Shown here: one piece after another, positions 28,762 to 64,000 of the stretch
Numbering within the stretch: the first letter of the stretch is position 1
How the letters are laid out: every line of letters starts with the position of its first letter
Origin: Lachnospiraceae bacterium
Lineage (GTDB): Bacteria; Bacillota; Clostridia; Lachnospirales; Lachnospiraceae
Assembly (NCBI GenBank): GCA_047975025.1
Contig: JBKECY010000050.1
Location: 38,055 to 102,054 of the forward strand
Direction of reading: 5' to 3'
Length of the DNA stretch: 64,000 nucleotides
The notes under the pieces: model-generated
Told to the model about the DNA's origin: nothing
What the model saw: only the letters and a program-made list of their open reading frames with translations
Databases searched by the model: none
Translations under genes and position numbers: made by a program

Positions 28762-28790
28762 TTGACTAAAAAAATTGTTGATGGTAAAAT
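28762..28790 (+). promoter_or_regulatory. Sigma-70-type promoter for the riboswitch-led transcript
   Basis: TTGACT (28762-28767), 17 nt spacer, TAAAAT (28785-28790), about 20 nt upstream of the riboswitch P1 helix. Confidence 0.6.
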
Positions 28791-28812
28791 GTACACAATT
28801 AAATATAACACA

Positions 28813-28979
28813 CAAGTAAGTGAGTCTGGTCTTGTACCAGAATTAGAGGGAATTAGGTTAGAGTCCTAAGCGATCCGGTCACTGTATTTGGATATGCGTC
28901 GTTTATGAAACCATTGTAGAGGAATCTATGAGAAGGGAAGCGGCGTGACAGTCCATAAGTCAGGAAACCTGCTTACTTG
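28813..28979 (+). promoter_or_regulatory. Cobalamin (B12) riboswitch aptamer
   Basis: An 8-bp P1 helix closes the element (CAAGTAAG 28813-28820 / CTTACTTG 28972-28979). The conserved core reads AGAGGGAATTAGGTTAGAGTCCTAAGCGATCCGGTCACTGT, and the B12 box is AAGTCAGGAAACCTGC (28957-28972). Confidence 0.88.
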
Positions 28980-29030
28980 GCAGAGGTGTAACTTCCGAGA
29001 AAAGTTGGAACCTATAGTTGATAACCATTA

Positions 29031-29059: not shown

Positions 29060-29264
29060 GCGTTTATTTTTAAAGGAAGGGGATGATTCAAAAGCAGACA
29101 GAGTTTTATCACCACAAATTATTTCAGCAGGAGAAAGGTAGAGAATAATGAAAAAAGTTTTGAAGGGATTTATGAAAAGAGGATGCAGTTTATTACTGGT
29201 CATCGTAATGCTGCTGACATCTTTGCTGCCCCAGGTTGTATTGGCAGCTCCTGAGGGAGAAAGT

Positions 29265-29735
29265 GCGTATGCAACGATTAGTGTGGAGGCTTTTTCGGTA
29301 GGCGGAGGGTATATAGTGGAGCCAATCAGGGTTCCGATTACATCAGGGGAAAAAGTCTCAGATGTATTTGAGGCGGCTTTGACCCAAAAGGGGTATACCT
29401 CGACAACCGTTACAGAAGGGACATATTATGTCACCGGAATTACCGGAAGTTTTTCTTTTACACCGGCACTTCCAGCAAGCACCAGTGCCTCTGTACAGGC
29501 TTTCGCAGAGACGAATGGAGACCCTATCCGGGAAAATTCAGAGCAGACATTGGATATGAGCTTCTGGACACCGGGTACCTTGAAAGCAGGGGATTTTGCC
29601 ACAACCAGTGGCTGGATGTATGCGTATAATAATGAAATGCCCGATACCACAATGAACAATGTGGAAGTACAGGACGGGGATGTGATCCGGGTGCAGTACT
29701 CCATGATGTGGGGGGATGACATTGGAGCAGGTTAC
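29265..29735 (+). other. DUF4430 / transcobalamin-like C-terminal-domain homology region within the giant protein
   Basis: ATISVEAF..GGGYIVEP..VPITSGEKVSDVFEAAL...YYVTGITG...TSGWMYAYNNEMP......VQDGDVIRVQYS follows the pattern I recall for PF14478. Confidence 0.7.
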
Positions 29736-32700: not shown

Positions 32701-35700
32701 ATAAGGTAATAAGCGTTCCTGTGGTTTGGGATGGGGACACGATGGAGGTTCCGGTCACTGTATATTCCGCAGATACAATCGCGTCAACTTATACAGTTAT
32801 CCTGCATAAAGAGCCTACCGCAGATGTACCGGACATTCTGTTACAGCCGACAGCAGGACAGAACTATGTGGATACGGATGCGGCAACGCCCATCAAAGTC
32901 AAAGCAAGTGCCAACGGAAGCCTGAGCTACCAGTGGTTCAAGAATACGACGGAAAGTACGCAAGGGGGCGTCAAAATTGACGGCGCAACGGCTGCTTCCT
33001 ACCAGCCGACCTATGGCCTGGTGACACAGACAGAGACATACTACTATTACTGTGTTATTACGAATACCAATACACAGGGAAGTTATGATACAACGACGGA
33101 TCTTGTGCATATCACCGTAAAGCCGGATCCGACACCCTATGATGTACAGCTTGTACCGTCGGACGGCAGTGAGCTTTCGGCGAACGGCTATTTCTGCGCA
33201 GTCGGAGACGAGGCGCAGGAGGTGAAAGTCACTTTCAAGAGTCGTGCACAAGGCGGGGTTGAGAACAATACGTATAAATATCAGTGGTGGACGAAGGATG
33301 CCAGCGGCACTGGTTCCGGTTCCACTAAGACGACGGATACGTTTTCGTTTGCAACAACACTTAACAGAGCACGTTATATCAGCTGCGTGGTAACCATCGC
33401 ACTGGATGGCGTCACTTACAAATCGGATTATAGGAATGCGGTCCTGTTTACAGTGTATGCCAAAGGAATAACGGCTACCACGATCTCAAAACAACCGGTG
33501 GCAGCAGAGTATGTTTGCGGTGCGGCCGATGTATTGCCGCTGTCAGTAACCATTAGTAACAACATTTCAGGAATGGATAATGCCTCTAATGTGCCGCAAT
33601 GGTATGTCAGTGACGACAATGTGACATTTGCGGCTATTGAAGGGGCTACGGAGCTGAGTTATACACCGCCGGCTACGTCAGAGCCTTCTGCAAAATACTA
33701 TAAATGCAAAATCACTTCCCGTCTGGTAAGCTACAATGGCAGAACCTATACGGCAGCCGTTGATTCAGATGCTGTTAAGGTAGGATTCTCGACATTAGAA
33801 GAGATTGTCGGAGAAACGTTGTGGGACGGAGAGGGTACGCAGGAAAATCCGTACCTGCTAAAGACCGCAGACGATCTGCTGCTGATGCAGCGTCTGGTTA
33901 ACGAAAAAGGAATTAATCTGTCAGGAAAATACCTGAAGATGGCAAATGATATTACATTACCCGAAGCATGGGTGCCTATTGGTTCCTTAAAACCGGGTAT
34001 GACATCGACATCTAATGGGAAGTATATCAATCCCTTCTCCGGTACTTTTGACGGAGGGAACTTCACGTTAACCGTCCCAGAGGATGGCCTGCCGCTTTGC
34101 GGCTATGTACGATTTGCATCAGTACAGAATTTGAATATTTACGGAACTAAAATCGCAGGCTACGGTCTTATCAATAATTTTACGGTAGACTACGGCGCCA
34201 CAGGTGTCTACAATGACTGGACAGCATTAGGCGCAGTTACGGCGAACATTGATAAGGTTACATTAAAGAGCGGTACAAAGACCTTAAAAGCGGGATTTTT
34301 AGGCGGCTATGCTTCCGCAGCCAATATTGTGAATTTTAATAACTGCCTTGTTGAAGAAGGGGTTATCATTGGCTACGATAAGAGCCAGACACAGATCGGT
34401 TCTTTTGCCGGCAATCTGGCCGGGACAATCAATAACTGCCATAGTTATGCTACGGTATACGGTACAGACCGGGTTGGTGGTCTGGCAGGTTCAAAAGGTG
34501 AGGCCATGGGAGTCTGCCGCGTAATTAACAGCAGCTTCCAGGGAACCGTAGAAGCGACTGGAAAGTATGTCGGCGGTATTTTCGGCTCCGGTTACACCTC
34601 AGCATCCGCACCTAATACACCTTGTGTTTCCGTACAAAACTGCTTTGTCAGAGCCGATATAACCGGCGGACAATACGTCGGTGGTATATTGGGAGCTGAG
34701 CCGGTTGTTGTACAGTGCTGGGCGAACGGTGTTGGTGCAATTCAGAACAACTATTTCTATGGAACGCTGTCAGGCGACGTAACAGGCGGTATTATAGGCC
34801 TGATGCATTCCTTGGATCGGTATAACATTATTGAGAACAACTACTTCTATGATTTGGGCGGCACAACAGATACAATTGGACACTGTGGATACGACTCTGA
34901 CGATTGCCAGGGAAGATACGAAATACCTTACAACAGATGCGTATTTCCGTTCAGACGACCCGTTAGGAGCAGATGCTGACAAGCTGGGACGGACTGTCAC
35001 AACAGAAGAGCTTTCAGATGGTACCATAACGGCAGCGCTTAATACAGGCGGCAGCAGTAGCAGGAATTGGGTTCAGGGAAGTTCCTTCCCGGAATTCGGT
35101 GAGGGTGAAGTGCTGTATGTGACAACCCTGGATATTACCGGCTACAAAGCGGAATACTCGACACTGGATGATTTTACAACTGAAGGAACGGTTGTCACTG
35201 CGTATATGAATGATGGAAGCAGCAAGCTGGTTGCCACAGAAGACGTAGAATTCTCCGGCTATATTCAGACAGCCGGTACGTGGACGATTACCGCTGTGTA
35301 TGGCGGCGCCATGAAGATGTTCAGTGTTAAGGTGCGGGCAGCCACAGATGAGGAAAAGGCACAAAAAGTAAGTGCTATGATTACTGCACTTCCCGAAGTG
35401 ACCCTGGACAGTGAAGATGCGATCACAGCTGTCCGGCAGGCGTATGACGGCTTGACGGATGTACAAAAAGAGCTGGTGAGCAACTATGCGCAGCTTACAG
35501 CAGCAGAAGACACGCTTTTGCAGCTGAAAGTCGATACACAGGCAGCGGAAGCAGCGACGCAGGCTATTGTTGCCATTGGAACTGTAACGAAAGATAGCGG
35601 GGATGCGATACAAGCTGCCCGTACAGCCTATGACGGACTGACAGAGGCTCAAAAACAACTGGTAACAGAAGATGTGCTCAAGACTCTGACCGATGCTGAG

Positions 35701-36544: not shown

Positions 36545-37279
36545 TTACAGTCCCAGAATCACACGAAGCAAAGCTAGAATCATGAAATGGGCAGGATAAA
36601 AAATATAAAAGAAATACTTATTTAATCGAGGTCTTAGATTGGTATGAATATAAATCAGAGGCAGAGACAAGAGTGCAAATGCCTGCAGATCCAGCCCTAG
36701 CGGACCTATGTAGAAGTAGTCCCCAAGCCCCCATGCCAGCATCCAGAGCGCAATGGTGCATGCTGACAGCCAACGAGGTCGTTCGCGCATCAGATAGAAT
36801 AGAACGATTAACCCAATACCATACAGACCATAATCCACTCCGACCAGCCACTCGAAGAGTACCAGCAGCGGGAGTAAAAACCAGCGCTTTCTCAAATCAG
36901 ACAGCGCATAAATGGCAATGACACCCAGCAAGAGCGTAAATAAAATATTCAGGTTCAGAAAATCCGCATCCATTCCGCTGCTTTGTGCGGTGAGTCTGGT
37001 AATCACATAGGCTCCAAGAAAAAGGGATTGTGTGATTACCGCAAAAATCCCAAGACGAAGCATGTAACGCTTTATATTTCGGGTGTACAGACAGCCCACC
37101 ACGACGCAGTAGGCAATCAATGGGAAGGAAATCCGTCCAAGAACTGCCATGATTTGATTTTCGGGAAAAAACGCTTTATGGACATGATCAATGACCATAC
37201 TGATGATTGCAATGATTTTTAAAAGGTTCGTATCGAGGTTCTCGTTTATTTTAGCTGCTGTTTTATCTGCCTGTGTCAT
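36545..37279 (-). CDS. TraX-family membrane protein (putative acyltransferase-like)
   Basis: 244 aa polytopic protein. The N-terminus LLKIIAIISMVIDHV is characteristic of the TraX family. Confidence 0.7.
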   Translation of the reverse strand: MTQADKTAAKINENLDTNLLKIIAIISMVIDHVHKAFFPENQIMAVLGRISFPLIAYCVVVGCLYTRNIKRYMLRLGIFAVITQSLFLGAYVITRLTAQSSGMDADFLNLNILFTLLLGVIAIYALSDLRKRWFLLPLLVLFEWLVGVDYGLYGIGLIVLFYLMRERPRWLSACTIALWMLAWGLGDYFYIGPLGLDLQAFALLSLPLIYIHTNLRPRLNKYFFYIFYPAHFMILALLRVILGL

Positions 37280-37371: not shown

Positions 37372-38100
37372 TTAGTCGGCATAGCCTGTTTCCCGGACTC
37401 CCTGGATGATATTGCGCATATAGGTGTCGCGTACTTTGCGATAATCCCGCTGCCGTATATAGACGATATCCCCGTTTTTCATAATAAAGTCCTGTGTCAG
37501 CTCCTCTACATAATTCAAGTTTACAATATAAGCCCGGTGGCAGCGCAGAAAAGGAGGGGAGGGGAGCATTTTCTCCAGAGCATCCATAGAAGTATAGGTT
37601 GAGATTTCACCGGCCGTAGTATGAATTGTGCAGGTTCTGTTGTAAATATCGACATACATAATTTGACGCAGTGCGATGCTTAGTTCCTTTTTATTCGAAA
37701 GTACGACGCAGTAGGGTTCCTGACCGGGCGTACTTAATTTTATAGCCTGCTGAAGCGCGCGATTCACGTCCTCCTGTCTGGTCGGCTTTAGCAGATACTG
37801 CAGTGCCTGTACTTGGTAGCTCTCAAACGTATGCTCGCGGCTGGAAGTTGTAAATATAATAATACAGTCATTATCCTGTGCCCGCAGCTGCTGCGCTGTT
37901 TCAATTCCGGTCATTCCTTTCATATAGATATCCAAAAACACGATCTGATAGTGTTCGGTCACACAACTTTGTAAAAATGCCTCACCACTATGAAAACAAT
38001 GCAGATTCATAGCGACCTGACTGGCTGTAAGCTGTGTGCACAACCATTCCATATCTTCTTTGCGGTCCTCGCATACTGCAACATTATATGGTACTTTCAA
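37372..38100 (-). CDS. Orphan response regulator, REC plus LytTR DNA-binding domain
   Basis: REC domain (VAVCEDRKED..., IVFLDIYMKGMTG) and a LytTR-type C-terminus (FLRCHRAYIVNLNYV). I prefer the TTG start at 38100, which is preceded by GGAGGGG plus 6 nt; the ATG at 38115 has no Shine-Dalgarno sequence. There is no kinase gene nearby. Confidence 0.8.
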   Translation of the reverse strand: MKVPYNVAVCEDRKEDMEWLCTQLTASQVAMNLHCFHSGEAFLQSCVTEHYQIVFLDIYMKGMTGIETAQQLRAQDNDCIIIFTTSSREHTFESYQVQALQYLLKPTRQEDVNRALQQAIKLSTPGQEPYCVVLSNKKELSIALRQIMYVDIYNRTCTIHTTAGEISTYTSMDALEKMLPSPPFLRCHRAYIVNLNYVEELTQDFIMKNGDIVYIRQRDYRKVRDTYMRNIIQGVRETGYAD

Positions 38101-38793
38101 TATTGACCCCTCCATTCAAGACTAAAAACATCCACTATTATATAGGTAGAAAAACAACTTTTTTTCAAAGATATAGCCACCACATTTCAAGCAGGCAGTA
38201 AGATACCGGATAGGATGGCATGTCGTAATTTTAACATGTTTTATACCGCCCGCACAGTGTGAATTTTCTGAATAGTTTTGTAAAATTAATGAAAAGTAAA
38301 AAAAAGGAGATGTATTCGCAAACTTATATGCAATATTACTACAAAAAATGATGATGCACAAAAACGAAAAAAAGTCAAGTGTATTTTACTACATGCAAAA
38401 TTGCCCGAAGCGCACGTCCGAAAAAAGCAAAATTTGATACAATTGATATGTGATATGTGAGTTGTTACTTCATATGATTTGAACAGATATATTGTTGCGT
38501 TTCAGGAAGGAGGAAAATTTGGCAGTGAAGTATACACATACTAATGGAGGATGGCAGCAAGAGAATGTCATATTGGTTCTATCTGAAACTACGTGTTTGA
38601 CCAGGTGACAGGGGAGAAAGGAGAGAATAAAACAAAAAAATGGGAAAGCAGAAACATCTTGATTGATCAAATGTTTGAGTATTCAATACTAGAAAGTACG
38701 TAATTCAGACGCTTGGTGCGGTTCATACCCTTGTATGGGCTATAAGGCCGTTTCGATGATGCATTGGATTCGTACATGAGGAAAGGGAATGGT

Positions 38794-41700
38794 ATGCAAA
38801 AAAGAATATTAAGTTTTATGCTGGTTGTTGCAATGCTATTGCAAGTACTGGTACCAAATTTAAGTTTAAGCGTAAATGCGGCGAATGATGGAACAGCACC
38901 CTGGGTAGTTACTTATGAGAGTGGTGTTGGAGATGATTCGGTTACGAATTTACCAAGTATTACAACTGTTAATGTTCCGGCAGGGCAATATAACAGTACT
39001 AATTTGAGAGTAAATTCCCCGGAAAGAAGTGGGTATACTTTTACCGGATGGAAAGTTACATTTAATGCAGGTGCTACGCTGGATGCAGGATACCGGGGTA
39101 TGGTTATTGCTCCGGATACAGATGCATACTTGGGAGGCACCATAGCTGACAAAAAGTGGAGCACTGCAACACTGACAGCACAGTGGAAGGAAAATACTGT
39201 CGCTGACACAGGTTCTGTGCAGCTGTGGCTGTATTTAAATGATAGTAATTTTACTAGTGCTTCTAATAGGAATTACAGTCTGAAATCTGTTAATTCAGAT
39301 GTGTCCTATGCAGCAGTAGCAGTGAATAACTCAGTAAAGTTTAATAATGTTGCAAATGGAACATATAGACTTTACGAAACATTTGCCGGAGGGTACACTG
39401 TTGATATTACAACGCTTTATTCCGAAGCAGCTGATACAACCAATGTAGCAAGCCCCATAGTCATCAACGGCGATGAACAGGAAATGGGAATTTACTACTA
39501 TCAGATTGATACGGCAGTAGCTGCTGCTGGGACTATCAGCAAGTCGGCAACCCCTTTTCAGGGAAGTGGCATTGCCTTTTTCCTGAAATATACGAAAGTT
39601 CAGTATACGGCGGTTAGGGACGGTTATAGTCTGACGGGATGGACCTCTACGGGATCTGCTATTTCTGCAGGTGGGGAAGTAGTATTAACTAATAGGACTA
39701 CAGTTACTCCAATTTACAGCGCAAATCCTACACCTAAAAAAGTATCTCTTGAAATTTATCTGGATAATACGCCGACCAGAGGTGACAAGGATTTTTATCT
39801 GCAGAGCAAAGATGACCCGACTGTGACAGTTTCATCAAGCTCACTGGGAAGCGAGTGGGTTGCTTTTGATGCTGTACCTTCCGGAACCTATAAGGTTTTC
39901 CAAAAAGTTGGTCAATGGATAAGTGATACCGATTTGGATACGGGAGTTGAGGTTACGGTTGGCAGCAGCGATGTAACGACGGCCGTCAATTACTATACAG
40001 TTCAAGTGAACAATGCAGGCGGTGGTACATCGGATATAGTTACCGGCGAATATGTTAAAGGCTCGGTGCTTCCGATTCTTGCAACACCAAATGCAGGGTA
40101 TTCTTTTGCTGGTTGGGTTGTTGCAGCAAATCCTGAATATCTGCAAAATGCAAGTCAGCCTAATGCTACTTTGTATGTACAGAAGGACATGATCATTCAG
40201 CCGTTATTTGAGGAAATTGATACATACAAGATAGTTTTTGATACGAATAAAGGTACGGAAACTTATAGCCCTTATGAAGGTGGATATCAAAGTTCTTACT
40301 ATCTTGCAGGTGCAACACGCCCGGGTTATATTTTCGCAGGCTGGAAAGTCGTAGAAGGTGGAGCAGAACAACTGATTGCTGCCGGCAGTTCGGTTCTTTA
40401 CAGTGAACTCGCCACAGATTCGACTGTGTCGCAGGTTACTTTGCAGGCGCAGTGGCAGCGAAGAGATGTTGTTGTCAATCTGTCCTTAGATGGTGATTCT
40501 TACACTTCCAATGATGGAAACATTTACCAATTGCGTGATGCATCCGGAGAGGTTCTGTATACGGCGACAAGTGAAAGCGGCAAAGTAAGATTTAAAGGAG
40601 TTGTCGAAGGCGTAACATACTATTTATGGGAAGATGTACCGGCTAATTCAGTGGACTACCAATTCCTGAACGTAGATGGTGGCACGAACTTTGAAATCAC
40701 TCCGAGTGCTGCTGCGCTCACCACTCGCAATTTAAATTATTATACGTTAAACGTTGCTTCTGCGGAAAATGGAACCACTGAGCCAGGTACAGGCAGTGCG
40801 ACTGTATATCCGCAGGGAATGACAGTGGAGTTAAAAGCAAAGCCTTCAGATGGATATAAATTCGCAACATGGAATCCATCAGGTGCAAGCGTAGTTGCTG
40901 ATGCTGCTAAAGCAGCAACAACAATTGTGATAAAGGGGACGACTCAATTATCGCCGCTCTTTGTTGCAAAAAATAGATTTGGAGTTATTTATAAGCTGGC
41001 TGGCGGTTCTTCTGCTGCAATTCCGGCAAGCGTAAGCATATTAAAAGAAGAAAATGTAATTCTGGCTGCTGAGCCAACGCGTGCAGGTTATGTGTTTGCA
41101 GGCTGGGTAGTAACGGAGAATGGTTCATCAGCAACAGACAATCAGGTATATCAAGCAGGCCAGACACTTGCGTATGAAGATGCAAGAGCCAGCACAACGC
41201 CAGCTTACATTGAGCTGACAGCACAGTGGCAAACAAACACTGTTGAAGTAGCACCATATCTTGATGGTGCGCGTACAGCAAAGAACCTTTATCTTAAAAA
41301 TACAGATGGTGTATCTGGTGATATTACAGGAAGCATTATTGATTCAGACGGAACATGGGAGTTTGCAGGTGTACCGAATGGTACCTATGAAATTTACGAA
41401 GATGTAGCCGTATGGATTGGTGAAGATATCGCAACAGGTAAAACAATTACTGTTATGGATAATAGTGTATCGACAGAATTGCATTATTATACTGTAGACG
41501 TGTCATATGATACTGCACAGGGCAGTGTGAATATTGAAACGCGTGTATACCTTGAAGGAACTAAGGTTACTCTTTTAGCAACTCCTGCCACAGGGTATCA
41601 GTTCGCTAATTGGGGATATGACGAAGAGTACATTAAAGACAGCAATGCGTCACAGACGACGCTGTATGTACAGGAACCGGTTACTTTTGCACCTACGTTT

Positions 41701-44700
41701 ACCAGTGACTCAGATTACACGATTGTGTTCGACTATAACGGAGCCGGTGAATCTGTACAGGTAGGACCGGGAAGCTTTACGGATGCGTATTCTGTACCTG
41801 AGGATCCTACACTTTCAGGCTCTGTATTTAAGGGCTGGAAGGTTATCGCAGGTGGAAGTGCACAGTTCTTAGGTGCTGCAAACACTCCATTTGCCTATGC
41901 ATCTCTGGCAACGGATAACTCTGTAAAACAGATTACGGTTCAGGCACAATGGGAGCGCAGAGATATTGTGATTAATCTCTATAAAGATGGAGAAGTCTAT
42001 GATGATCTGCAAGGCACGCGTTTCCAACTAAGAGATGTTTCAGGAAATGTTCTCTACTCAGCGGTAAGCAGTAATGGTAAAGTAAGATTTAGAGGTGTTG
42101 AAGCCGTTGATGCCAATAATGCGTACAGACTCTGGGTAGATGTTCTGAATACGACGCACGACTATCAATTCCAGACAAAAGACGGAACCTTACCTCTGAC
42201 AATTTCATCAGAAACAGGTGCTCTGATTTCAGTTGACGTTAATTACTATACATTAACTCTAAATGAAGCTGAGCATGTTACAACAACTCCGGAAGCCGGC
42301 AGCAAAGTGTATCCGCAGGGTACCAGTGTAAGCTTGTCAGCGGAGCTGGATTATGGATTTAAGTTTGTACAATGGAGCTCTGACACTGCCGGTGCAGTCG
42401 CAGATTCCAGCTCAAAAAATACGACCGTTCTGTTGCAGGATACAACACAGGTAACACCGGTCGTTGTAGAAAAGAACAAATTCAAAGTATTCGTTGATTT
42501 AAATGGGGGAAGCTCAGACACAATTACGGATACGGAAGTTTACAAAACTGACAATGTAATTCCGACAGATGTTCCGGAGTATACAGGTCATGTATTTGCA
42601 GGATGGAGAGTAACAGAGAATTCAGCAGATACCAACGTTTATCAATCAGGCGATACACTTTTGTACAAAGATGCGGAAGCGAACAGCGCTCTTAATTCCA
42701 TCACGTTACAGGCACAGTGGGAAGTTAACACAGTCGCGCTGGATGTGACACTGGATGGCACTGCTGTTCCGACAGCGAAAGTATTTTATCTGAAAAATAC
42801 AGATGGAACATCACCTGATATTACGGAATTCACTACGGATGCTACAACAATCTCTTTTGCCGGCGTACCAAACGGCAGTTACGAAATCTGGGAGAAGATT
42901 GGTAACTGGGCAGGCGGAGATGTTTCTACCGGAAGAGGTTTCAGTGTTGCAGATCAAAGTGTAACCATTGCTCTTGACTACTTTAATGTTACTGTGGACG
43001 TTAGTTCAACAATTGGCGGAACGGTTGATATCGAGAGCGGTATCTATCTAAAAGGCAGTGAGATTGCAATCAATGCAACGGCTGACCTTGGCTATCAGTT
43101 CGCCAGCTGGGGATATGCAAGTCAATATCTCCCGGGCAATACGAATGCGCAGGCAACACTGTATGTTCAGGAACCGGTCACTTTGGCACCAGAGTTTACA
43201 GCCGAAAGCGATTATTCAATTATGTTCGACCTAAATGGGGCATCAGGTACTGCACCTGCCACATTAACAGGCACATTTGCGGCACATTATACAGTACCAT
43301 CGGATCCGGAACGTTCCGGTTATGTATTCGATGGCTGGAAAGTAGTTGCTGGCGGTACTGCGACACTTGGTGATGCAGACTCTATCTTTGCTTACAGTGA
43401 TTTGGCAACTGACGCAACAGTAAAACAGGTAACAGTTCAGGCACAATGGATACAAAAGCGCGTTGTAATCGCACTGTACAAAGACGGTGCACGTTGGAAT
43501 AATCCTGAAACAGAGATGACCTTCCAGCTGCGTGATGCATCCGGAGAACTTGTGTATACCTCTCCTGAAAGCGAACTTGCCAGAGCCAGATTTACTGAGG
43601 TCAAGACAGGAACGTACTATCTATGGGAAGATATTAAGAACACATCCGTAGATGAGCAGGTATACAATGAAGACGGAACGGCAGTTGAAGTTGTTGTAGG
43701 TGCAGAAGATGCACGTATTCAGATTGATGTGGACTATTACACACTGAATATCAAAGCAGCAGTCAATGGAACTACCGAACCTGGAGAAAGTACAACAATT
43801 TACCGTCAGGCAACAGGTGTCAAATTGACAGCAACACCTGACTATGGATTCGAACTTGCTTCATGGGGTATCAGTGCAGGTGGTGCACTCGAAGAAGGCC
43901 CTGACGCAAATCAGGCAACTGTCTATATGAGTAATACAACGACACTCGAACCTGTATTTACAGCAAGAGATCAGTATGTTGTGTATTATGATTTTGCCGG
44001 CGGAAGCTCTGATACGATTGAAACACTGCTTTGCTACCAGGAAGAAAATGTCGTACCGGCTGCGATTCCTACAAAAGCGGGCTATACATTTGCCGGCTGG
44101 GTAGTTACAGAGAATGCCAATAGCGGACTGTCAGGAGATCCGATACAGGCAGGTACGCAGTTAACGTATGCAGACGCGGCAGATGCTGCGGCTAACTACA
44201 TCAGACTGACGGCGCAGTGGGAATCCAATGATGTAGCACTGTCAATCTTCCTGGATAATGCAGCGTTCGACGATTGCACAAAGCAATTCTTCCTGAAGAG
44301 TGCAGACGGCAAAATCGTTTCGAACTATGATGTTGACACAACAAGCTTTGCGGCTGTACCGGATGGCGAATACGAAGTATGGGAAAAGATTCCATACAAA
44401 GAGAGTCTTGCAACGGGAGTTCTTGTTTCCGTAGCATGTACAGATGCATCTGCAAGCGTGTATTATTGCACACTTACTGTGAATGCACCGGCAGAAGGCG
44501 GCACAGTGAAAGCAGCTGCAGGAATCTACCTGGATGGTACGGTCCTGAATATTACTGCAACACCGGCAGCCGGATATGAGTTCGTTACATGGGGCTTCAC
44601 AGGCGAAGGATTACTGGAAGTGGATCAGGCGGCAACCACAGTGACTGTTGGACCAAATGCTACACTAAATCCAGAATTTGCACAGAAAAATTACACAGTA

Positions 44701-47178
44701 GTATATGATGTGAATGGTGGAACTCCAGAGCTTGCGAATTGGAATACCGCAACATGGACATCAGGCGTATACAATGATCAGGTCAGCAAGTCAGGATATA
44801 CACTGGCAGGCTGGGAAGTCGTAGAAGGCGGTTCCGGTATCGTACGTGACTTTACTAAGACATATGGTGATGTTGCAACGGATGCGGAGACAACTTCAAT
44901 CACTTTAAAAGCTATCTGGAATGCCAATGACGTAACCTTTAAAGTTAAGAAAGACGGAACAGATTGGGCAGAGTTCACCAGAACGTTCTACCTGAAGAAT
45001 GATGCTACGAATGAAACGACTGCACAGACATCAACAGACGGAGCGACAGTTCTGTTTGCGGCAGTACCGGAAGGAAGCTACACATTATATGAGGATACAC
45101 CGGGCACATCTGTTGATGCAAAATTAGCGTTAAGTCAATTAGTTATGACCGGCGGAGCATTTAGTTACAGCTCAATCGGAGAATATGTTGACTATTACAC
45201 AGTAACTGTAAATGAAACAGTCAACGGTACAGTGACACCGCAGCCGGGCTCGAAAGTATATCTTGAGAACAGTCTGGTAACGCTTAAAGCAGTACCGGAG
45301 AGTGGATATTCATTTGAATCATGGAATATAGATGCGGATACATCGAGTCTGATTTCTGACGAAACGGCTGTGAATGCAGTTCTGACAGTGACAGATACAA
45401 CAACTCTTAGTCCGACATTTACAGAAAATGATGAGTATGAAATCGTATACGAACTCAACGGAGCAGCGGAAGCACCAATTGCTGCAACGACTGGCGTAAA
45501 GTGGACAGATAAAGTGTTGGATAAAGCGCCTGAGCAGTTAACCAAATTTGGTTATACGTTTGCAGGCTGGACACTGGATGCTGCCGGTAACAAGGCTGTT
45601 ACAGCGGATACACTGTATAAAGAGGCAACAAATGGTGATGATTCAATTGCAACCGTAACGCTGTATGCACAGTGGGAAGCAAGACAGGTAACAGTTAAGT
45701 TTGATGGAAATCAAGGCACCGGAAGTTCAGAACCAAGTTCTACGCAATCGATTGTCACTGAATATGGCGAATTAATCGATGCACCTCTGGCTCCAACAAG
45801 AGATGGATATACCTTTGGAGGCTGGTACTACTTCATAGGCGGAGAATATCATGAATTTGGATTTGGATATGCAGGTACAGAACTGACAGATGCAATTGGC
45901 GTCATTGAGTATCATAAGGCATTGGAGATTACCCTGTATGCGAACTGGGTAGCCAAGGAGGTCGTTGTAAAATTCAACAGCAATAAGGGAACGGGATCTA
46001 CAGCACCTACCGAAACTGCTGACATGACAGCCACATTTGATTCTGCACTGGTCATCACACAGACAGCGCCGACGAGACCTGGCTATACCTTTGATGGCTG
46101 GTATCTGGATAAGAGCCTTACGAAGAAAGTAGTTAACGGCGTTACAATGCTTACGGCAGACAATGGCGTACTGACACCTGGAAAGGGCGATCAGACATTG
46201 ACTGTATATGCAAAATGGGCACCGAAGACTGTGAAACTGTATTACGAGTTAAATGATGGTAAAGCTACACCTGCCGGTGTAATTTTCAATCAGACAAAAG
46301 CATCAAAAGAAGGTCTGTTCGATCAGGCTGTTTCCAACCCAACGAACCCGACAAGACCGGGATATACATTCAAGGGCTGGTATGAAGTGCCTTCTACCAA
46401 GGTGGCATCGAATACACCTGCATGGGTATTTGCCAACAAACTGGGAAGCAAACTCCTCTCTGCAGCAAATGTTACAGTTCAGTCTGAGATGAGCAAGACA
46501 TTCTACGCAAAATGGGAAGCGAAGACATATACAGTTACCTTTAGTGCAAACGGAGGAACTCTGGACACGTCTTCAAAAACCAAGAAAGTGACATATGATA
46601 CAGCCTATGGTGATCTTCCGACAGCTACACAGTCCCGTTATCAGTTTGACGGATGGTGGACGAAGAAGACCGGTGGTGAAAGAGTCACAGCATCTACAAT
46701 CTTTACAAATGCTAAAAATACAACCGTATATGCTCATTGGACAAAAGGTGTTGTTGTTTACAGAGTCTATAATCCAAATTCTACAGAGCATGTATATACA
46801 CCGGATATTGCCGAAGTCAATGTATGCGTAAGCAAAGGATGGCAGTATGAAGGCGTTGCATGGATCGCCGCACCGAAGGAATACGGCGAGCCGGTATACA
46901 GAACCTACAATAAAAATTCAGGTGAACATTTCTATTCAACGAACATGGGAGAAATCAGAGCCCTGCAGGCAATAGGATGGACGTATGAAGGTATTGCATG
47001 GTATAGTGCAACGAACAAGAAAGTACCTGTATACAGACTGTACTCACCGTATCTGACAGGTGAGCAGCAAGCTGGTTCACATCTCTTTACAACAAGTAAG
47101 TATGAGAGAGATACCCTGATCCAAGGTGGATTATGGTTAGATGAAGGTATTGGCTGGTATGGATTTGCAGCAATTTAA
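38794..47178 (+). CDS. Giant (~2,794 aa) secreted repeat protein / putative adhesin, built from Listeria-Bacteroides (InlB B-type) repeats alternating with SpaA/Cna-B-like beta-sandwich modules, with C-terminal DUF5648-like repeats
   Basis: The start is set at the ATG at 38794 (GGAAAGGGAA Shine-Dalgarno sequence). Signal peptide MQKRILSFMLVVAMLLQVLVPNLSLSVNA. There are more than 15 G-Y-x-F-x-G-W motifs, each ending in ..L.AQW. The interleaved modules carry G(T/S)Y(E/R)(I/L)(Y/W)E. The tail has three copies of VYR.YN.NSGEHFY...E......GW.YEG..W. There is no LPXTG motif. Confidence 0.85.
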   Translation: MQKRILSFMLVVAMLLQVLVPNLSLSVNAANDGTAPWVVTYESGVGDDSVTNLPSITTVNVPAGQYNSTNLRVNSPERSGYTFTGWKVTFNAGATLDAGYRGMVIAPDTDAYLGGTIADKKWSTATLTAQWKENTVADTGSVQLWLYLNDSNFTSASNRNYSLKSVNSDVSYAAVAVNNSVKFNNVANGTYRLYETFAGGYTVDITTLYSEAADTTNVASPIVINGDEQEMGIYYYQIDTAVAAAGTISKSATPFQGSGIAFFLKYTKVQYTAVRDGYSLTGWTSTGSAISAGGEVVLTNRTTVTPIYSANPTPKKVSLEIYLDNTPTRGDKDFYLQSKDDPTVTVSSSSLGSEWVAFDAVPSGTYKVFQKVGQWISDTDLDTGVEVTVGSSDVTTAVNYYTVQVNNAGGGTSDIVTGEYVKGSVLPILATPNAGYSFAGWVVAANPEYLQNASQPNATLYVQKDMIIQPLFEEIDTYKIVFDTNKGTETYSPYEGGYQSSYYLAGATRPGYIFAGWKVVEGGAEQLIAAGSSVLYSELATDSTVSQVTLQAQWQRRDVVVNLSLDGDSYTSNDGNIYQLRDASGEVLYTATSESGKVRFKGVVEGVTYYLWEDVPANSVDYQFLNVDGGTNFEITPSAAALTTRNLNYYTLNVASAENGTTEPGTGSATVYPQGMTVELKAKPSDGYKFATWNPSGASVVADAAKAATTIVIKGTTQLSPLFVAKNRFGVIYKLAGGSSAAIPASVSILKEENVILAAEPTRAGYVFAGWVVTENGSSATDNQVYQAGQTLAYEDARASTTPAYIELTAQWQTNTVEVAPYLDGARTAKNLYLKNTDGVSGDITGSIIDSDGTWEFAGVPNGTYEIYEDVAVWIGEDIATGKTITVMDNSVSTELHYYTVDVSYDTAQGSVNIETRVYLEGTKVTLLATPATGYQFANWGYDEEYIKDSNASQTTLYVQEPVTFAPTFTSDSDYTIVFDYNGAGESVQVGPGSFTDAYSVPEDPTLSGSVFKGWKVIAGGSAQFLGAANTPFAYASLATDNSVKQITVQAQWERRDIVINLYKDGEVYDDLQGTRFQLRDVSGNVLYSAVSSNGKVRFRGVEAVDANNAYRLWVDVLNTTHDYQFQTKDGTLPLTISSETGALISVDVNYYTLTLNEAEHVTTTPEAGSKVYPQGTSVSLSAELDYGFKFVQWSSDTAGAVADSSSKNTTVLLQDTTQVTPVVVEKNKFKVFVDLNGGSSDTITDTEVYKTDNVIPTDVPEYTGHVFAGWRVTENSADTNVYQSGDTLLYKDAEANSALNSITLQAQWEVNTVALDVTLDGTAVPTAKVFYLKNTDGTSPDITEFTTDATTISFAGVPNGSYEIWEKIGNWAGGDVSTGRGFSVADQSVTIALDYFNVTVDVSSTIGGTVDIESGIYLKGSEIAINATADLGYQFASWGYASQYLPGNTNAQATLYVQEPVTLAPEFTAESDYSIMFDLNGASGTAPATLTGTFAAHYTVPSDPERSGYVFDGWKVVAGGTATLGDADSIFAYSDLATDATVKQVTVQAQWIQKRVVIALYKDGARWNNPETEMTFQLRDASGELVYTSPESELARARFTEVKTGTYYLWEDIKNTSVDEQVYNEDGTAVEVVVGAEDARIQIDVDYYTLNIKAAVNGTTEPGESTTIYRQATGVKLTATPDYGFELASWGISAGGALEEGPDANQATVYMSNTTTLEPVFTARDQYVVYYDFAGGSSDTIETLLCYQEENVVPAAIPTKAGYTFAGWVVTENANSGLSGDPIQAGTQLTYADAADAAANYIRLTAQWESNDVALSIFLDNAAFDDCTKQFFLKSADGKIVSNYDVDTTSFAAVPDGEYEVWEKIPYKESLATGVLVSVACTDASASVYYCTLTVNAPAEGGTVKAAAGIYLDGTVLNITATPAAGYEFVTWGFTGEGLLEVDQAATTVTVGPNATLNPEFAQKNYTVVYDVNGGTPELANWNTATWTSGVYNDQVSKSGYTLAGWEVVEGGSGIVRDFTKTYGDVATDAETTSITLKAIWNANDVTFKVKKDGTDWAEFTRTFYLKNDATNETTAQTSTDGATVLFAAVPEGSYTLYEDTPGTSVDAKLALSQLVMTGGAFSYSSIGEYVDYYTVTVNETVNGTVTPQPGSKVYLENSLVTLKAVPESGYSFESWNIDADTSSLISDETAVNAVLTVTDTTTLSPTFTENDEYEIVYELNGAAEAPIAATTGVKWTDKVLDKAPEQLTKFGYTFAGWTLDAAGNKAVTADTLYKEATNGDDSIATVTLYAQWEARQVTVKFDGNQGTGSSEPSSTQSIVTEYGELIDAPLAPTRDGYTFGGWYYFIGGEYHEFGFGYAGTELTDAIGVIEYHKALEITLYANWVAKEVVVKFNSNKGTGSTAPTETADMTATFDSALVITQTAPTRPGYTFDGWYLDKSLTKKVVNGVTMLTADNGVLTPGKGDQTLTVYAKWAPKTVKLYYELNDGKATPAGVIFNQTKASKEGLFDQAVSNPTNPTRPGYTFKGWYEVPSTKVASNTPAWVFANKLGSKLLSAANVTVQSEMSKTFYAKWEAKTYTVTFSANGGTLDTSSKTKKVTYDTAYGDLPTATQSRYQFDGWWTKKTGGERVTASTIFTNAKNTTVYAHWTKGVVVYRVYNPNSTEHVYTPDIAEVNVCVSKGWQYEGVAWIAAPKEYGEPVYRTYNKNSGEHFYSTNMGEIRALQAIGWTYEGIAWYSATNKKVPVYRLYSPYLTGEQQAGSHLFTTSKYERDTLIQGGLWLDEGIGWYGFAAI
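40441..44931 (+). repeat. Three tandem, diverged 1497-bp (499-aa) coding super-repeats inside the giant gene
   Basis: The landmark ..VQAQW(E/Q/I)(R/Q)(R/K)(D/R)(V/I)V(V/I)(N/A)L.. begins at 40441, 41938 and 43435, exactly 1497 bp apart. A second landmark, LTAQW..N.V, occurs at 41221, 42712 and 44212. Confidence 0.85.
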
Positions 47179-59737: not shown

Positions 59738-60958
59738 ATGAACGAGAAATTATTTGCCACAGCACAGAAATACAGTGAACATATAGCTAATCTTTGTGGT
59801 ACGACAAGCTATTTAATAGATCATAACAGCAAAGAGATGAGTTGTTCAGCCTATGCGAAAATCTGTGAGCAGTGTATAAAATATAAGCTATGCCATTGTA
59901 ATGCCGTAGATGCCTATATACAAGGCTACGAGCAGGCCTATCAGTGGGATGGAATGTATATTTATTTGTGTGAACTGGGACTGGTGCTGGCGGGATTTTC
60001 CATTTCTGATGAGGATGGAGATCTGACAGGCGGTCTGCTCGTGGGCCCTTGTTGTCTGGGAACGATTGACGACAATCTGCAGGATGATTTTCCTATGGAG
60101 GTCAAGGAGACGATTTCCGGTATGCCCAGCTTTACGGTAGGTCAGATTCAGAGTATGGCAGAGATCGTGGTAGTACTGACAGAGCAGATGTCGGAAGGAC
60201 TGCATACGAAGTCTAAACGAGTATTCTACCAGCAGGAAACTTTGGTGCGTGACTTATATACGGAGAAAATGCGCCAGCTGTCAGATAACACATATTATAT
60301 GTATCCCATTAAGCTGGAAAGAGAGCTCAGGATGGCGATCCGCAGTCAGGACAAGGAGAATGCACAGATCATCTTGAATCAGATACTGGCAACGATTTAT
60401 GTGTCAAACGATTCTAATATCGAGAGGATGAAGCCTAGAATCACAGAACTTCTCATTGTTATTTCACGTGCGGCACTGGAGGTGGGGGCGGACGGAGGCG
60501 GTCTGCCGGTCATGACACAGGATTTTGCCAGAGAACTAGATAAAATCAACACGATTGAGGACATGAGTGCCTGGCTTTCGGCTATATTGCAGACGCTGAT
60601 CAAGGACACCTTCGATTTTAATAATATTAAGCACGGAGAGATCATCTTTAATGTTGTCGAGTATATTAAGCGAAATTATATGAAGAACATAACGTTGGAC
60701 GACATTGCCCAAAGCACCTATGTGAGCAAAGCGTATTTAAGCAGTCTCTTTAAAAAAGAAACGGGCAAGAGTATCTCTCACTATATCAATTGTGTGCGGG
60801 TGGATAAAAGCAAGCTTTTGCTGCTCAATAGCAAACTGGGGCTTGTCGAAGTGGCAGATTTATGCGGATTTGGAAGTCAAAGTTACTTTACTAAGATTTT
60901 TCACAGTATTGTCGGGGTAACACCCAAAAAATACAGGGAAGAGCGCGGAAAAAAATAG
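59738..60958 (+). CDS. AraC-family transcriptional regulator with N-terminal PocR-like sensory domain
   Basis: N-terminal Cys-rich segment (CSAYAKICEQCIKYKLCHC...YIYLCELGL...GGLLVGP) resembles PocR. The C-terminus is an AraC HTH (VEYIKRNYMKNITLDDIA...GVTPKKYR). Confidence 0.7.
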   Translation: MNEKLFATAQKYSEHIANLCGTTSYLIDHNSKEMSCSAYAKICEQCIKYKLCHCNAVDAYIQGYEQAYQWDGMYIYLCELGLVLAGFSISDEDGDLTGGLLVGPCCLGTIDDNLQDDFPMEVKETISGMPSFTVGQIQSMAEIVVVLTEQMSEGLHTKSKRVFYQQETLVRDLYTEKMRQLSDNTYYMYPIKLERELRMAIRSQDKENAQIILNQILATIYVSNDSNIERMKPRITELLIVISRAALEVGADGGGLPVMTQDFARELDKINTIEDMSAWLSAILQTLIKDTFDFNNIKHGEIIFNVVEYIKRNYMKNITLDDIAQSTYVSKAYLSSLFKKETGKSISHYINCVRVDKSKLLLLNSKLGLVEVADLCGFGSQSYFTKIFHSIVGVTPKKYREERGKK

Positions 60959-60959
60959 A

Positions 60960-61634
60960 TCAGATTTCTGCCTGCCAGGACATGGCAGGCAGTACCTTTT
61001 TAGGTGCATGGACAGGGATGATTTTGGGGATTCTCACCTTTTCTGTATCCCAGATAAGCTCCTGAAGTTTTTGCTTAGACAGAGTCTGCCGACCGGCAGG
61101 CTCTGTTTTGCAGTGTGGATTGATTGTATAAATATAAGTCTGCAGGGCAGATAACTGTTCCGGTGAAAGCGCCTCTGTTTTACTGAGAAAGACAAAATCA
61201 CTATGGCGGATCTGGTTTTCTAAAAATGTTTCGGACAAGAGGCGGCGTTTCTCGAACGTGGAAGCATCCAGCACAAGACAGATAGATTTGATATGGCACA
61301 GTTTCTGCAAAGCCGGTGTCTGAAGTTGTACCAGCAGATCAGAGAGCTGCGCAAAGCCGGAGGCCTCTAATAAGATAGAATCAGGCGCCTCTTCGTAGAC
61401 CGTCTGAATCATACCGGGAACAAGCGTGCCGGCACAGCAGACACACCCGGCATACATACTTTTTACAAGGATTGAGGGGGTAGCAGACGCATAAGAAGGA
61501 TAGGTGCATTTGCCGGACTCGTTCTCCCAGACAACGATTTTTTGTGCCTGCGGCGCCTGTTCCAGCAGCTGCCTGGCAAAGGTAGTCTTGCCGGCACCTT
61601 GAAAACCTGCAATGACAATAAGTTCTGTTTTCAT
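60960..61634 (-). CDS. COG0523/CobW-family G3E P-loop GTPase (short form, no CobW_C domain)
   Basis: About 224 aa from the ATG at 61634 (AAGGAGG Shine-Dalgarno sequence). P-loop IAGFQGAGKTT, VWENESG, and the family metal motif GCVCC. Confidence 0.75.
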   Translation of the reverse strand: MKTELIVIAGFQGAGKTTFARQLLEQAPQAQKIVVWENESGKCTYPSYASATPSILVKSMYAGCVCCAGTLVPGMIQTVYEEAPDSILLEASGFAQLSDLLVQLQTPALQKLCHIKSICLVLDASTFEKRRLLSETFLENQIRHSDFVFLSKTEALSPEQLSALQTYIYTINPHCKTEPAGRQTLSKQKLQELIWDTEKVRIPKIIPVHAPKKVLPAMSWQAEI

Positions 61635-61673
61635 GATGGTATCCTCCTTGTAGAAGTCTGTATCCAATTGCTT

Positions 61674-63050
61674 TTATAAGCCGTATTCTGCCGGTGCGTA
61701 TTTGCTTTCGTCTAATTCTGCACGTATTTCCTGTGTAAATTCCTCTTTGTCCTCTGGAATTTCGTCAATCTGATCTTTTAGGATATCCAGCCAGCGCGTC
61801 TCTTTTTCGCTGATTTCAAGCTCTTTGGCTGCAACTGCATGCTCAAGGATTTCCACAGTTTTTCTGGCAACATGTAATGTTCTTAAGAAGGGGTCTTGTG
61901 TTTTGATGATTTCTTTACTGATTTCGAAGACTACATCCGGACGCATTACATAAGCCTGCGGGTCCAGATAGCAGTCAGACTCAACGAGCAGATCCCGCAT
62001 TACTTTTTGGTATCCTTTTTCTGCAGCCTTGTTCATCAGACGGCAGTCGTAGATGAGCTGTTCCGTAGAAACGACCGGTGCGAACCCGCTTAGAAGTTTG
62101 ACCTGCTGTACAGATTCATTGCTCCACAAATCAGCGACAGCCGCTGAAATATTGCCGATGGGGCTAAAGTGAGCGCACGCAGCAGATTTTCCTTCCAGTG
62201 AAATAGGGGTGCCCGTAATAGCTTTTAAATAAACATTTTCATAAGCGCAGTCTTTACCAGGCCCAACAGCTCCGTTTTCAAGTGCCACTAAGGCTCTGGG
62301 AGCTGAAATTGTACGCATAAATGCAGCATACACTTTGGGGATAAAGCCTTGTTCTGCCAGAACCATGGCGGTATTGGCAAAGCCGCAAGCCGAATCGCCG
62401 CCGGCAATAGCACCGTTCTCGGTAATGATCTGAGTGAGATTCTGCCAGAGCCATTCCATATCGTTGGAGGCAAGCACGCCAAGTGCGAAAATAGAGGTGC
62501 GGATATCAGCGTTTACGATGGCCGCATCGTTGATTTCCTTGCCGCCGGTAGATTCGATCGATAAGATATCTGCGCCGTCTTTGGCAGTCTGCTCAAATAT
62601 AGAAACCATAGAATCCCAATATTTGCCGCTTCTCATAATCGGCGGACGGGACATATCACGCAGATCGTTCGGGGTCATGCGGATAACTGTTTTAAGTCCG
62701 TGTTTTGCTTCGAATTCTGATATTCTGTCACGCAGGATTTTGTGAATGGAGATACCCCATTCCGGGTGTTCTGTATATTGCGGCAAGGTCTCAAATTCGA
62801 CGACCAGACCGGGCGCATGCAGCTCGTGTGCTTTTTTCAGCACGCCGTCAATCATGTCGGTGTAAATCCTTTGGGCTGTCGGCAGGGTTTCAGCAGTTGC
62901 ACTCATAACCGGCAGAGTAAAGTTGACTTCAGGGTAGATGGTACCTCCTCCAATAGTAAGACCGTTTTTGCATACAACCGGGTTAGGGCATTTGCCGTAC
63001 AGAAAATCTTCGGTTGAAGCATAGGCAAGTTGTGAGAAAGTTTTTTTCAT
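61674..63050 (-). CDS. mtaB: MtaB-family methanol:corrinoid methyltransferase homologue
   Basis: 458 aa. It aligns along its whole length with the Methanosarcina MtaB sequence as I remember it: SIESTGGKE, GDSACGFANTAM, ISAPRALVALENGAVGPGKDCAYEN, AACAH, WSNESV, DPQAY, and C-terminal PAEYGL. Confidence 0.8.
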   Translation of the reverse strand: MKKTFSQLAYASTEDFLYGKCPNPVVCKNGLTIGGGTIYPEVNFTLPVMSATAETLPTAQRIYTDMIDGVLKKAHELHAPGLVVEFETLPQYTEHPEWGISIHKILRDRISEFEAKHGLKTVIRMTPNDLRDMSRPPIMRSGKYWDSMVSIFEQTAKDGADILSIESTGGKEINDAAIVNADIRTSIFALGVLASNDMEWLWQNLTQIITENGAIAGGDSACGFANTAMVLAEQGFIPKVYAAFMRTISAPRALVALENGAVGPGKDCAYENVYLKAITGTPISLEGKSAACAHFSPIGNISAAVADLWSNESVQQVKLLSGFAPVVSTEQLIYDCRLMNKAAEKGYQKVMRDLLVESDCYLDPQAYVMRPDVVFEISKEIIKTQDPFLRTLHVARKTVEILEHAVAAKELEISEKETRWLDILKDQIDEIPEDKEEFTQEIRAELDESKYAPAEYGL

Positions 63051-63367
63051 TTGTGGTTCCTCCTTTTTAGCTCGAAAGCAATTGTAATGTGTGGTGTTAC
63101 CCGTATACTATCAAAAGAGAATTGTAAAATATATCAAAATAATAGAATTTTTTTAACTTTTTTTCGACTTTATTTTGATAAAAAATGCCAACTAATTGAA
63201 AAAGTATAAGTATCATACAAAAAAACAGATGTCCAATACTGAAATTTGCTGAATGCGTGATACTATTGTAAAAAAATTACAAAAATCATTGTTTATTGAT
63301 ATATTTTTAAAAAATCCTATGCCATAATGTGCTCGTTAAGATTATATAAATACAGGAGGAGAACACA

Positions 63368-64000
63368 ATGAATATGTTTAAATGGGTGGATAAAATGATC
63401 TTTGAGGATGAGAAAAAACCTTTGCCTATTTTATCTTTTCCGTCAGTACAGTTATTATTTGTAACTGTTAAAGAGTTGGTCTCAAGCAGTGATTATCAGG
63501 CTATGGGGATGCGAATGATCGCCGACAAGTATGATATGCCGGCAGCCCCCAGTTTCATGGATCTCTCAGTAGAAGCTGAGGCATTCGGTTCTACGGCTGT
63601 CTATGCCAGTGATGAAGTGCCAACCATCATCGGACATCTTGTGCGTACGCAAGAAGAGGCAGATGCGCTCGTTGTACCCGAGGTAGGTGCCGGACGTACG
63701 GGAATCTGCGTGGAGGGTGTGAGAAAAAGCCTCAAGCTGATCACAGACCGCCCGGTTTTCGCCGGTTGTATCGGACCCTATTCGCTGGCGGGGCGTCTGA
63801 TGGATATCAACGAGGTTATGGTCGACTGCTATGAAGAGCCTGAAAAAGTACATACGGTGCTTCAAAAAGCCACTGATTTTATTATAAAATATATTAAAGA
63901 GTTCAAAAAAACAGGGGCACATGGTGTCATCCTGGCCGAGCCGCTGGCGGGTCTGTTGTCTCCGGAACTTATGCAAAAGTTTTCTTCCGATTACGTTCGT
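63368..64000 (+). CDS. Uroporphyrinogen-decarboxylase-family (MtaA/MtbA-like) methylcorrinoid methyltransferase, 5' part; the frame runs off the window end
   Basis: Not in the ORF track because there is no stop in the window. My translation: MNMFKWVDKMIFEDEKKPLPILSFP...SVEAEAFGSTAVY...FAGCIGPYSLAGRLM...GVILAEPLAGLLSPE. AGGAGGA Shine-Dalgarno sequence 6 nt upstream. Confidence 0.7.
   Translation, partial: MNMFKWVDKMIFEDEKKPLPILSFPSVQLLFVTVKELVSSSDYQAMGMRMIADKYDMPAAPSFMDLSVEAEAFGSTAVYASDEVPTIIGHLVRTQEEADALVVPEVGAGRTGICVEGVRKSLKLITDRPVFAGCIGPYSLAGRLMDINEVMVDCYEEPEKVHTVLQKATDFIIKYIKEFKKTGAHGVILAEPLAGLLSPELMQKFSSDYVR

Follow-up and report, generated by a model that had tools for sequence, protein, structure and literature searches.

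An mtaB gene detached from its usual corrinoid partner was found in the 64,000-nt stretch of DNA analysed in this study (contig JBKECY010000050.1, assembly GCA_047975025.1, of a Lachnospiraceae bacterium), the whole of which is referred to as the window. The gene encodes MtaB, the methanol:corrinoid methyltransferase (MT1) of the Mta systems, and lies in a locus that lacks mtaC, the gene of the corrinoid protein. The locus is a mosaic of two partial corrinoid-methyltransferase modules, i.e., mtaB-cobW on the one hand and a URO-D family methyltransferase gene with the gene of a PocR-AraC regulator on the other. On balance, and with modest confidence, these genes are considered to serve the transfer of methyl groups from methanol, with a corrinoid protein and an activase whose genes would lie elsewhere.

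Pectin-derived methanol is a major C1 substrate in the guts of herbivores and humans, and mtaB is a marker gene for anaerobic methanol use. In the Mta systems, MtaB methylates the Co(I) of a corrinoid protein with methanol, the MT2 enzyme passes the methyl group to coenzyme M in archaea and to tetrahydrofolate in bacteria, and an activase re-reduces oxidised cobalt (PMC5770442, PMC8048578, PMC13391211). Expression of bacterial mtaB has been reported from peat soils (PMC10805028). The features of the locus, with gene domains assigned by Pfam search, were as follows:

59738..60958, forward strand (+): MtaR-like regulator with a PocR sensor and AraC-type helix-turn-helix (HTH), 406 amino acids (Pfam PocR, PF10114; HTH_AraC; HTH_18)
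60960..61667, reverse strand (-): short COG0523/CobW-type G3E GTPase, probable metallochaperone, 224-235 amino acids, directly 3' of mtaB (Pfam cobW, 92 bits)
61674..63050, reverse strand (-): MtaB, methanol:corrinoid methyltransferase (MT1), 458 amino acids, intact (PF12176, 577 bits, full length)
63051..63367, no strand: A+T-rich region of divergent promoters, in which one box is present in two inverted copies (read from the sequence)
63368..64000, forward strand (+), running off the window: URO-D family MtaA/CmuA-like zinc methyltransferase, probable MT2 (Pfam URO-D)

The gene identities and coordinates given in the preliminary description of this DNA (PocR-AraC, COG0523, MtaB and a divergent URO-D gene) were borne out by the Pfam matches, the MtaB, URO-D and PocR families all being matched at the locus. 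All four reading frames are intact. The regulator combines an N-terminal PocR domain with a C-terminal AraC HTH part, in which two AraC HTH domains were matched. The gene start of CobW is either a TTG, giving 235 amino acids, or the ATG at 61634 used by the public gene call, giving 224. Only the first 211 codons of the URO-D gene lie in the window; the complete gene, of 342 amino acids and ending at the window-equivalent position 64396, was obtained from L001, a Logan contig (SRR30067235) that is identical to the window over 9080 bases and reaches 5304 bases past its end.

The identification of MtaB is based on the full length of the protein. Residues 3-457 aligned onto positions 2-460 of the 460 of PF12176 and the M. 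barkeri MtaB (PDB 2I2X) was matched with E = 7e-90, while the score against the methanogen equivalog NF040651 was 416 bits, under its cut-off of 720. Counted in the alignment, E166, C222 and C268 of the window protein stand opposite E164, C220 and C269 of 2I2X, and the three motifs in which zinc ligands had been proposed earlier (SIESTGGKE, GDSACGF and GPGKDCAYEN) all fall on these residues. The M. barkeri ligands, reported by Hagemeier et al. 2006 as Glu164, Cys220 and Cys269, agree with this count. Homologues number more than 7000 at E < 1e-20, the nearest being 77% identical, and those that bear a name are called methanol--corrinoid methyltransferase and come mostly from uncultured Lachnospiraceae. 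By homology, methanol is the presumed methyl donor of the window MtaB.

The gene order was compared among 80 MtaB loci, one genome per species, in which the neighbours were sorted by clustering and profiles and the clusters were named with Pfam. Counts for close relatives refer to the 21 loci whose sequence extends 1.5 kb or more to either side and in which MtaB is 69-77% identical to that of the window. Among the members of the close clade are rabbit-gut and rumen Lachnospiraceae, Anaerocolumna, Sporanaerobium and some termite-gut Bacteroidales. Its genes are laid out as mtaC-mtaB-cobW, with a convergent PocR-AraC gene next to cobW. The mtaC gene lies 0-77 bases 5' of mtaB in all 21 loci, CobW is present in 14 and PocR-AraC in 17, and a URO-D-like gene occurs nearby, downstream, in only four. 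The same layout, with mtaC directly 5' of mtaB, was found in the two nearest metagenomic relatives (77%). Altogether mtaC precedes mtaB in 23 of 23 close relatives with readable upstream sequence, whereas the window locus is without it. In a neighbour-joining tree, which carries no support values, the window MtaB falls inside the close clade, whose members all have mtaC upstream.

The lack of the mtaB-mtaC adjacency, already pointed out in the preliminary description, is therefore real and sharper than was stated there. On the other hand, the COG0523 GTPase does not take the place of mtaC, as had been supposed, since CobW 3' of mtaB is the norm of the clade. From the order mtaC-mtaB-cobW in the relatives it follows that the missing gene belongs upstream of mtaB, where the 318-base divergent promoter region now sits, and the simplest reading would be that mtaC was lost or separated secondarily. 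The window locus thus resembles those of the other Lachnospiraceae in its MtaB, in the CobW gene after mtaB and in the convergent PocR-AraC gene after CobW, and differs from them in the missing mtaC, in the URO-D gene divergent from mtaB and in its regulator, which is only 28-31% identical to the regulators adjoining mtaC-mtaB-cobW.

Two other arrangements were seen among the relatives. In three termite-gut Bacteroidales/Prevotellaceae loci (L017, L020 and L024; e.g., L020 1711-15400), whose MtaB is 73-74% identical to the Lachnospiraceae ones, the order is mtaC-mtaB-(Met_synt_B12-like gene)-URO-D. The genes immediately preceding this set are SusC/SusD/SusE and one for a GH13 cyclomaltodextrinase-like protein, and another conserved gene (cluster c18) comes after it, so that the set appears to be embedded in a polysaccharide utilisation locus. 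In rumen Lachnospiraceae (L014, L021-L023 and L027, in the last at 12270-13481 (-)), a family of about 400 amino acids without a Pfam match adjoins mtaC-mtaB/PocR-AraC; its similarity to the URO-D profile is only faint (28 bits in L027), and it may represent an undescribed substrate-specific methyltransferase. Genes at 3259-4488 of L106 and 5304-6530 of L140 possibly belong to the same family, judged by similar size only.

The corrinoid partner was searched for with an MtaC profile built from 38 MtaC-type proteins of related loci. The profile gave no match in any frame of the window and L001, and a search for DxHxxG gave no match within a plausible gene. In the 318-base region between mtaB and the URO-D gene, no mtaC remnant was found by six-frame profile search. 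MtaB and the URO-D protein are of canonical length, with no extra B12-binding domain. The locus is flanked by rpmF-yceD-ackA-pta on one side and by a tRNA gene on the other. On L001 the URO-D gene is followed on its 3' side by tRNA-Arg(CCG), a membrane protein, a pseudouridine synthase, LigA and HTS (homoserine O-acyltransferase); an MtaC-type protein, which had been predicted to lie beyond 64000, is thereby ruled out for the next 5304 bases. The 257-amino-acid gene after tRNA-Arg was considered as a hidden corrinoid protein and rejected, as its product has a transmembrane segment, a low-complexity Thr/Ala region and no Pfam match. The tRNA gene itself (L001 4625-4699 (-), window-equivalent ~64606-64680 (+)) is situated about 210 bases 3' of the URO-D gene; tRNA genes are frequent sites of rearrangement or insertion.

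In the preliminary description, the lack of any corrinoid protein nearby was named as grounds for giving up its interpretation. Such a protein is indeed lacking in the sequence covered, but the identity of MtaB is not overturned by this, since there are solitary mtaB genes and a corrinoid protein may be shared (PMC13391211). In Moorella, for example, several MT1 enzymes can be served by one corrinoid protein or MT2 enzyme, and a solitary mtaB2 is listed (PMC13391211). Among 40 distant MtaB loci, with 2.5-10 kb of sequence covered on each side, 15 had no MtaC within that sequence. The combination of MtaB, CobW and PocR-AraC without adjacent mtaC recurs in three distant lineages, i.e., Planctomycetota (L063/L064), Candidatus Kuenenia (anammox; L069/L070) and L050/L056. 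Genes for MtaC, URO-D and RACo are located 5-9 kb away in L064, with the corrinoid protein at about 7 kb. These recurring sets, the arrangement in L064, the sharing in Moorella and the occurrence of the URO-D module without a local corrinoid protein (see below) support a corrinoid protein acting in trans.

A different explanation for the same gap could be that no carrier protein is needed, MtaB and the URO-D enzyme handing over the methyl group by way of a cobamide that is free or loosely bound, which the M. barkeri enzymes MtaB and MtaA are able to do in vitro. Free cob(I)alamin can replace MtaC (Sauer and Thauer 1999, as cited in PMC5770442 and PMC10805028), neither the window nor the 21 URO-D orthologue loci have an adjacent corrinoid protein, and the orphan sets of the three distant lineages would be explained likewise. 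However, a free cobamide in the Co(I) state does not last in cells unless an activase is at hand, neither enzyme has gained a B12-binding domain, the corrinoid protein of L064 is only 7 kb off, and sharing of corrinoid proteins in trans is documented as the norm (PMC13391211), so that this explanation is regarded as improbable. Equally doubtful is its wider form, i.e., a minimal two-enzyme system without a dedicated corrinoid protein, the same undescribed biochemistry being carried out by the URO-D and PocR-AraC pairs, in which the acceptor would possibly be a thiol (sulfide or homocysteine) and not tetrahydrofolate. A thiol acceptor is conceivable because the His-Cys-Cys zinc site of the URO-D enzyme is of the thiol-activating type.

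The residues H227, C229 and C310 of the URO-D protein align with the His-x-Cys...Cys zinc site of MtaA 4AY7 (chain residues H246, C248 and C325). The protein passes the Pfam URO-D threshold, and all its NCBIfam scores are under the curated cut-offs: it scored 134 bits with NF004889 (methylcobalamin:CoM methyltransferase; cut-off 244), 108 bits with TIGR01463 (MtaA/CmuA; cut-off 235) and 72 bits with HemE, the range for the MtaA models being 91-134 bits against cut-offs of 235-600. Its homologues at 50-57% identity often stand directly after an MtaC-type gene, with RACo, PocR-AraC and further divergent URO-D-like genes nearby, and in 16 of the 40 distant loci, which include Bacteroidales and Opitutaceae, mtaC-mtaB is followed by more distant URO-D genes belonging to the same cluster (18-27% identical). 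Judging from these neighbourhoods, the URO-D family thus appears to be corrinoid-dependent and to be placed where an MT2 is expected.

The closest homologues of the URO-D protein (63-74% identical) come from gut Clostridia, including Ruminococcus gauvreauii (70%). Neither MtaB nor MtaC was found near these orthologues in any of the 21 loci examined, while in 11 of them a PocR-AraC gene lies 88-155 bases 3' of the URO-D gene on the same strand. The window regulator is 47-48% identical over the full length (406 vs about 407 amino acids) to these URO-D-linked regulators of the R. gauvreauii type. The two-gene module, URO-D then PocR-AraC (L082-L084, L088-L091, L093, L095, L096 and L102; URO-D at about 8001-9029 in L082), lies in a housekeeping context, none of the genes within 8 kb coding for a corrinoid protein, MtaB or an activase, and its function appears uncharacterised.

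The mosaic origin of the window locus follows from these two results: the orthologues of its URO-D gene are never next to mtaB or mtaC, and its regulator is closest to the URO-D-linked ones. The preliminary description had spoken of an island; the locus is not a single inherited unit, as the URO-D and PocR-AraC genes make up a separate module of gut Lachnospiraceae that occurs without mtaB. The window shares with this module the URO-D protein, the regulator, a homologous promoter element of the URO-D gene and the absence of an adjacent corrinoid protein. It differs in the order, because in the gut Lachnospiraceae the URO-D gene is followed by the regulator on one strand with nothing between them, whereas in the window the regulator is upstream of the URO-D gene, with mtaB-cobW interposed on the other strand.

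The promoters of the two halves of the mosaic are alike. The exact 12-mer TTGATATATTTT occurs once on each strand in the region between mtaB and the URO-D gene, and the two promoters read from the sequence are:

mtaB side, reverse strand (-): box 63126-63137, -10 element TAGTAT at 63105-63110
URO-D side, forward strand (+): box 63296-63307, -10 element CATAAT at 63323-63328

In both copies exactly 15 bases separate the box from the TGn-extended -10 element, and the two share 44 of 70 aligned bases. Both also align with the promoters of URO-D orthologues that precede an orthologous regulator. When one mismatch was allowed, TTGATATATTTT had four matches in the 64 kb against 0.6 expected, and none of 100 shuffles reached four. 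The mtaB gene has a well-formed predicted promoter and ribosome-binding site. These features are suggestive of mtaB-cobW having been placed under a copy of the URO-D promoter, in which case both units would answer to the same regulator. The only other exact copy of TTGATATATTTT in the window, at 16479-16490 (-) in the intergenic gap 16460-16595, is probably a chance match in A+T-rich DNA.

The shared box bears on the possibility that the two halves are merely neighbours, i.e., that the URO-D and PocR-AraC genes are an independent unit with its own methyl donor or acceptor, and that mtaB-cobW landed between them and uses another MT2, if any, such as the pterin-binding MtaA of acetogens. URO-D orthologues are never linked to mtaB elsewhere, a URO-D gene is nearby in only four of the 21 Lachnospiraceae mtaC-mtaB-cobW loci, and the MT2 (MtaA) of the acetogen methanol system, at about 30 kDa, is smaller than the 342-amino-acid URO-D enzyme (PMC13391211). 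Chance neighbourhood is nevertheless unlikely given the same box at the same spacing in both promoters, and given that URO-D genes of the same cluster follow mtaC-mtaB in 16 of the 40 distant loci.

In the preferred reading, a pathway with a corrinoid protein in trans, the regulator, like MtaR of E. limosum, would respond to methanol or to a small molecule related to it, and would activate both divergent promoters that carry the box. MtaB would then transfer the methyl group of methanol, e.g., released from pectin, to a corrinoid protein from another part of the genome, from which the URO-D enzyme would pass it on to an acceptor, most likely tetrahydrofolate and possibly a thiol. A RACo/RamA-type activase, also encoded elsewhere, would keep the cobalt reduced, and CobW would most likely load zinc into MtaB and/or the URO-D enzyme. 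The CobW protein has the P-loop GFQGAGKT at residue 21 and a CVCC sequence (CxCC metal-binding motif) at residue 75. The Pfam search found only the N-terminal cobW/G3E nucleotide-binding domain and no CobW_C domain, and all NCBIfam matches were under the cut-offs. It is 23-38% identical to the CobW proteins after mtaB in 14 of the 21 close relatives (35-38% to the closest).

The regulatory part of this pathway has a precedent in the mta operon of acetogens, which is headed by the PocR-AraC regulator gene mtaR and includes the auxiliary genes mtaW, mtaX and mtaY (PMC13602510). In E. limosum, genetic tests have established MtaR as an activator of the promoter of the mta operon, which is induced by methanol, and MtaR is required for mta expression, although the sensing of methanol by the PocR domain itself is still unsettled (PMC13602510). 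The control of mta genes by PocR-AraC is in this respect better known than it appeared from the preliminary description. The E. limosum operon and the window locus have in common MtaB as MT1, the PocR plus AraC architecture of the regulator and the presence of auxiliary genes (PMC13602510), among which mtaW may match the window CobW, judged by name only. In contrast to the window locus, the E. limosum operon has two corrinoid proteins, whereas the window genes are split over two divergent promoters, their regulator is orthologous to URO-D-linked and not to mtaC-mtaB-linked regulators, and the URO-D/MtaA-type enzyme of 342 amino acids stands against an acetogen MtaA of about 30 kDa (PMC13391211).

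Coenzyme M is not known in such bacteria, and the acceptor must therefore differ from that of Methanosarcina. The window locus is otherwise similar to the Methanosarcina MtaB-MtaC/MtaA system (2I2X, 4AY7) in the Glu/Cys/Cys zinc ligands of MtaB and the His-x-Cys...Cys site of the URO-D-type MT2. COG0523 genes are also found near the mta genes there; their clustering with mtaA, mtaB, mtaC and ramM was described in 2009 (PMC2770081). The differences are that MtaC is present in Methanosarcina and absent at the window locus, and that the host of the latter is a bacterium.

Several results weigh against the pathway in trans. Neither a corrinoid protein nor an activase was seen in about 69 kb (the 64-kb window plus 5.3 kb). 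The order of the regulator and URO-D genes differs from that in the relatives, and at least two rearrangements are needed to explain it. The similarity of the boxes lies in A+T-rich DNA, and a weight matrix from the URO-D promoters of four relatives, too few sites for a sound matrix, ranked the URO-D-side copy second of 128,000 positions and missed the mtaB-side copy. As the matrix is weak, the suggested co-regulation is based on the exact 12-mer, the equal spacing and the alignment. Methyl donor, acceptor and effector are all presumptive assignments by homology. In addition, the branch of the window MtaB in the neighbour-joining tree is long, and its number of private substitutions is the second highest in a set of 120 relatives.

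The last two points could possibly be caused by decay, if a rearrangement parted mtaB-cobW from mtaC and left genes that no longer serve methanol metabolism. The window is the sole locus without mtaC against 23 close relatives, its MtaB has, besides the long branch, eight private changes at near-invariant positions, and its CobW gene is short. However, the changes are mostly conservative, 205 of the 213 near-invariant columns of the 120 relatives are retained together with the zinc ligands, and a pseudogenisation of mtaB is not supported for this reason. The four intact reading frames, the P-loop and CxCC motif kept in CobW and the well-formed predicted promoter and ribosome-binding site of mtaB also speak for genes in use, so that a decaying remnant is considered rather unlikely.

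The components of the locus and their pairwise associations, i.e., PocR-AraC control, COG0523 linkage, shared corrinoid proteins and solitary mtaB, have already been described. What is particular to it is the absence of mtaC against 23 of 23 relatives, the mosaic origin and the apparently duplicated promoter; it is an unusual rearrangement of a known system and not a new kind of system, and the advance is incremental unless the carrier-free explanation is true. The locus indicates that mtaB of a non-model Lachnospiraceae can part from the gene of its corrinoid protein and be rewired under the promoter and regulator of another methyltransferase module. This affects the scoring of 'complete' Mta systems in metagenomes, in which solitary mtaB genes should not be dismissed, and makes the locus a natural test case for the sharing of corrinoid proteins between methyltransferases.

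Elsewhere in the window, a cobalamin riboswitch (Rfam RF00174, 87 bits) is located at 28801-28990 (+); it indicates that the organism uses cobamides, which is in keeping with the pathway in trans. On the 3' side of the riboswitch, at 29148-34979 (+), lies the gene of a surface-type protein of 1943 amino acids, in which DUF4430, Big_2, cadherin-like and FIVAR domains were recognised. DUF4430 is presumably related to cobalamin-binding transport proteins, and the protein could be a B12-regulated cell-surface protein for cobamide capture. The top match of the promoter weight matrix, at 28781-28809 (-), just upstream of the riboswitch on the opposite strand, is probably due to chance. For the acetate kinase encoded in the window, the closest proteins come from uncultured Lachnospiraceae and do not exceed about 80% identity, which fits a putative undescribed Lachnospiraceae lineage of gut or rumen type. 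A further large gene, at 38764-47178 (+), encodes a protein of 2804 amino acids that contains numerous Listeria-Bacteroides repeats (Flg_new) besides SpaA-like domains and ends in a C-terminal DUF5648, and is preceded on the opposite strand by genes of a LytTR response regulator (37372-38115) and of the TraX family (36545-37279).

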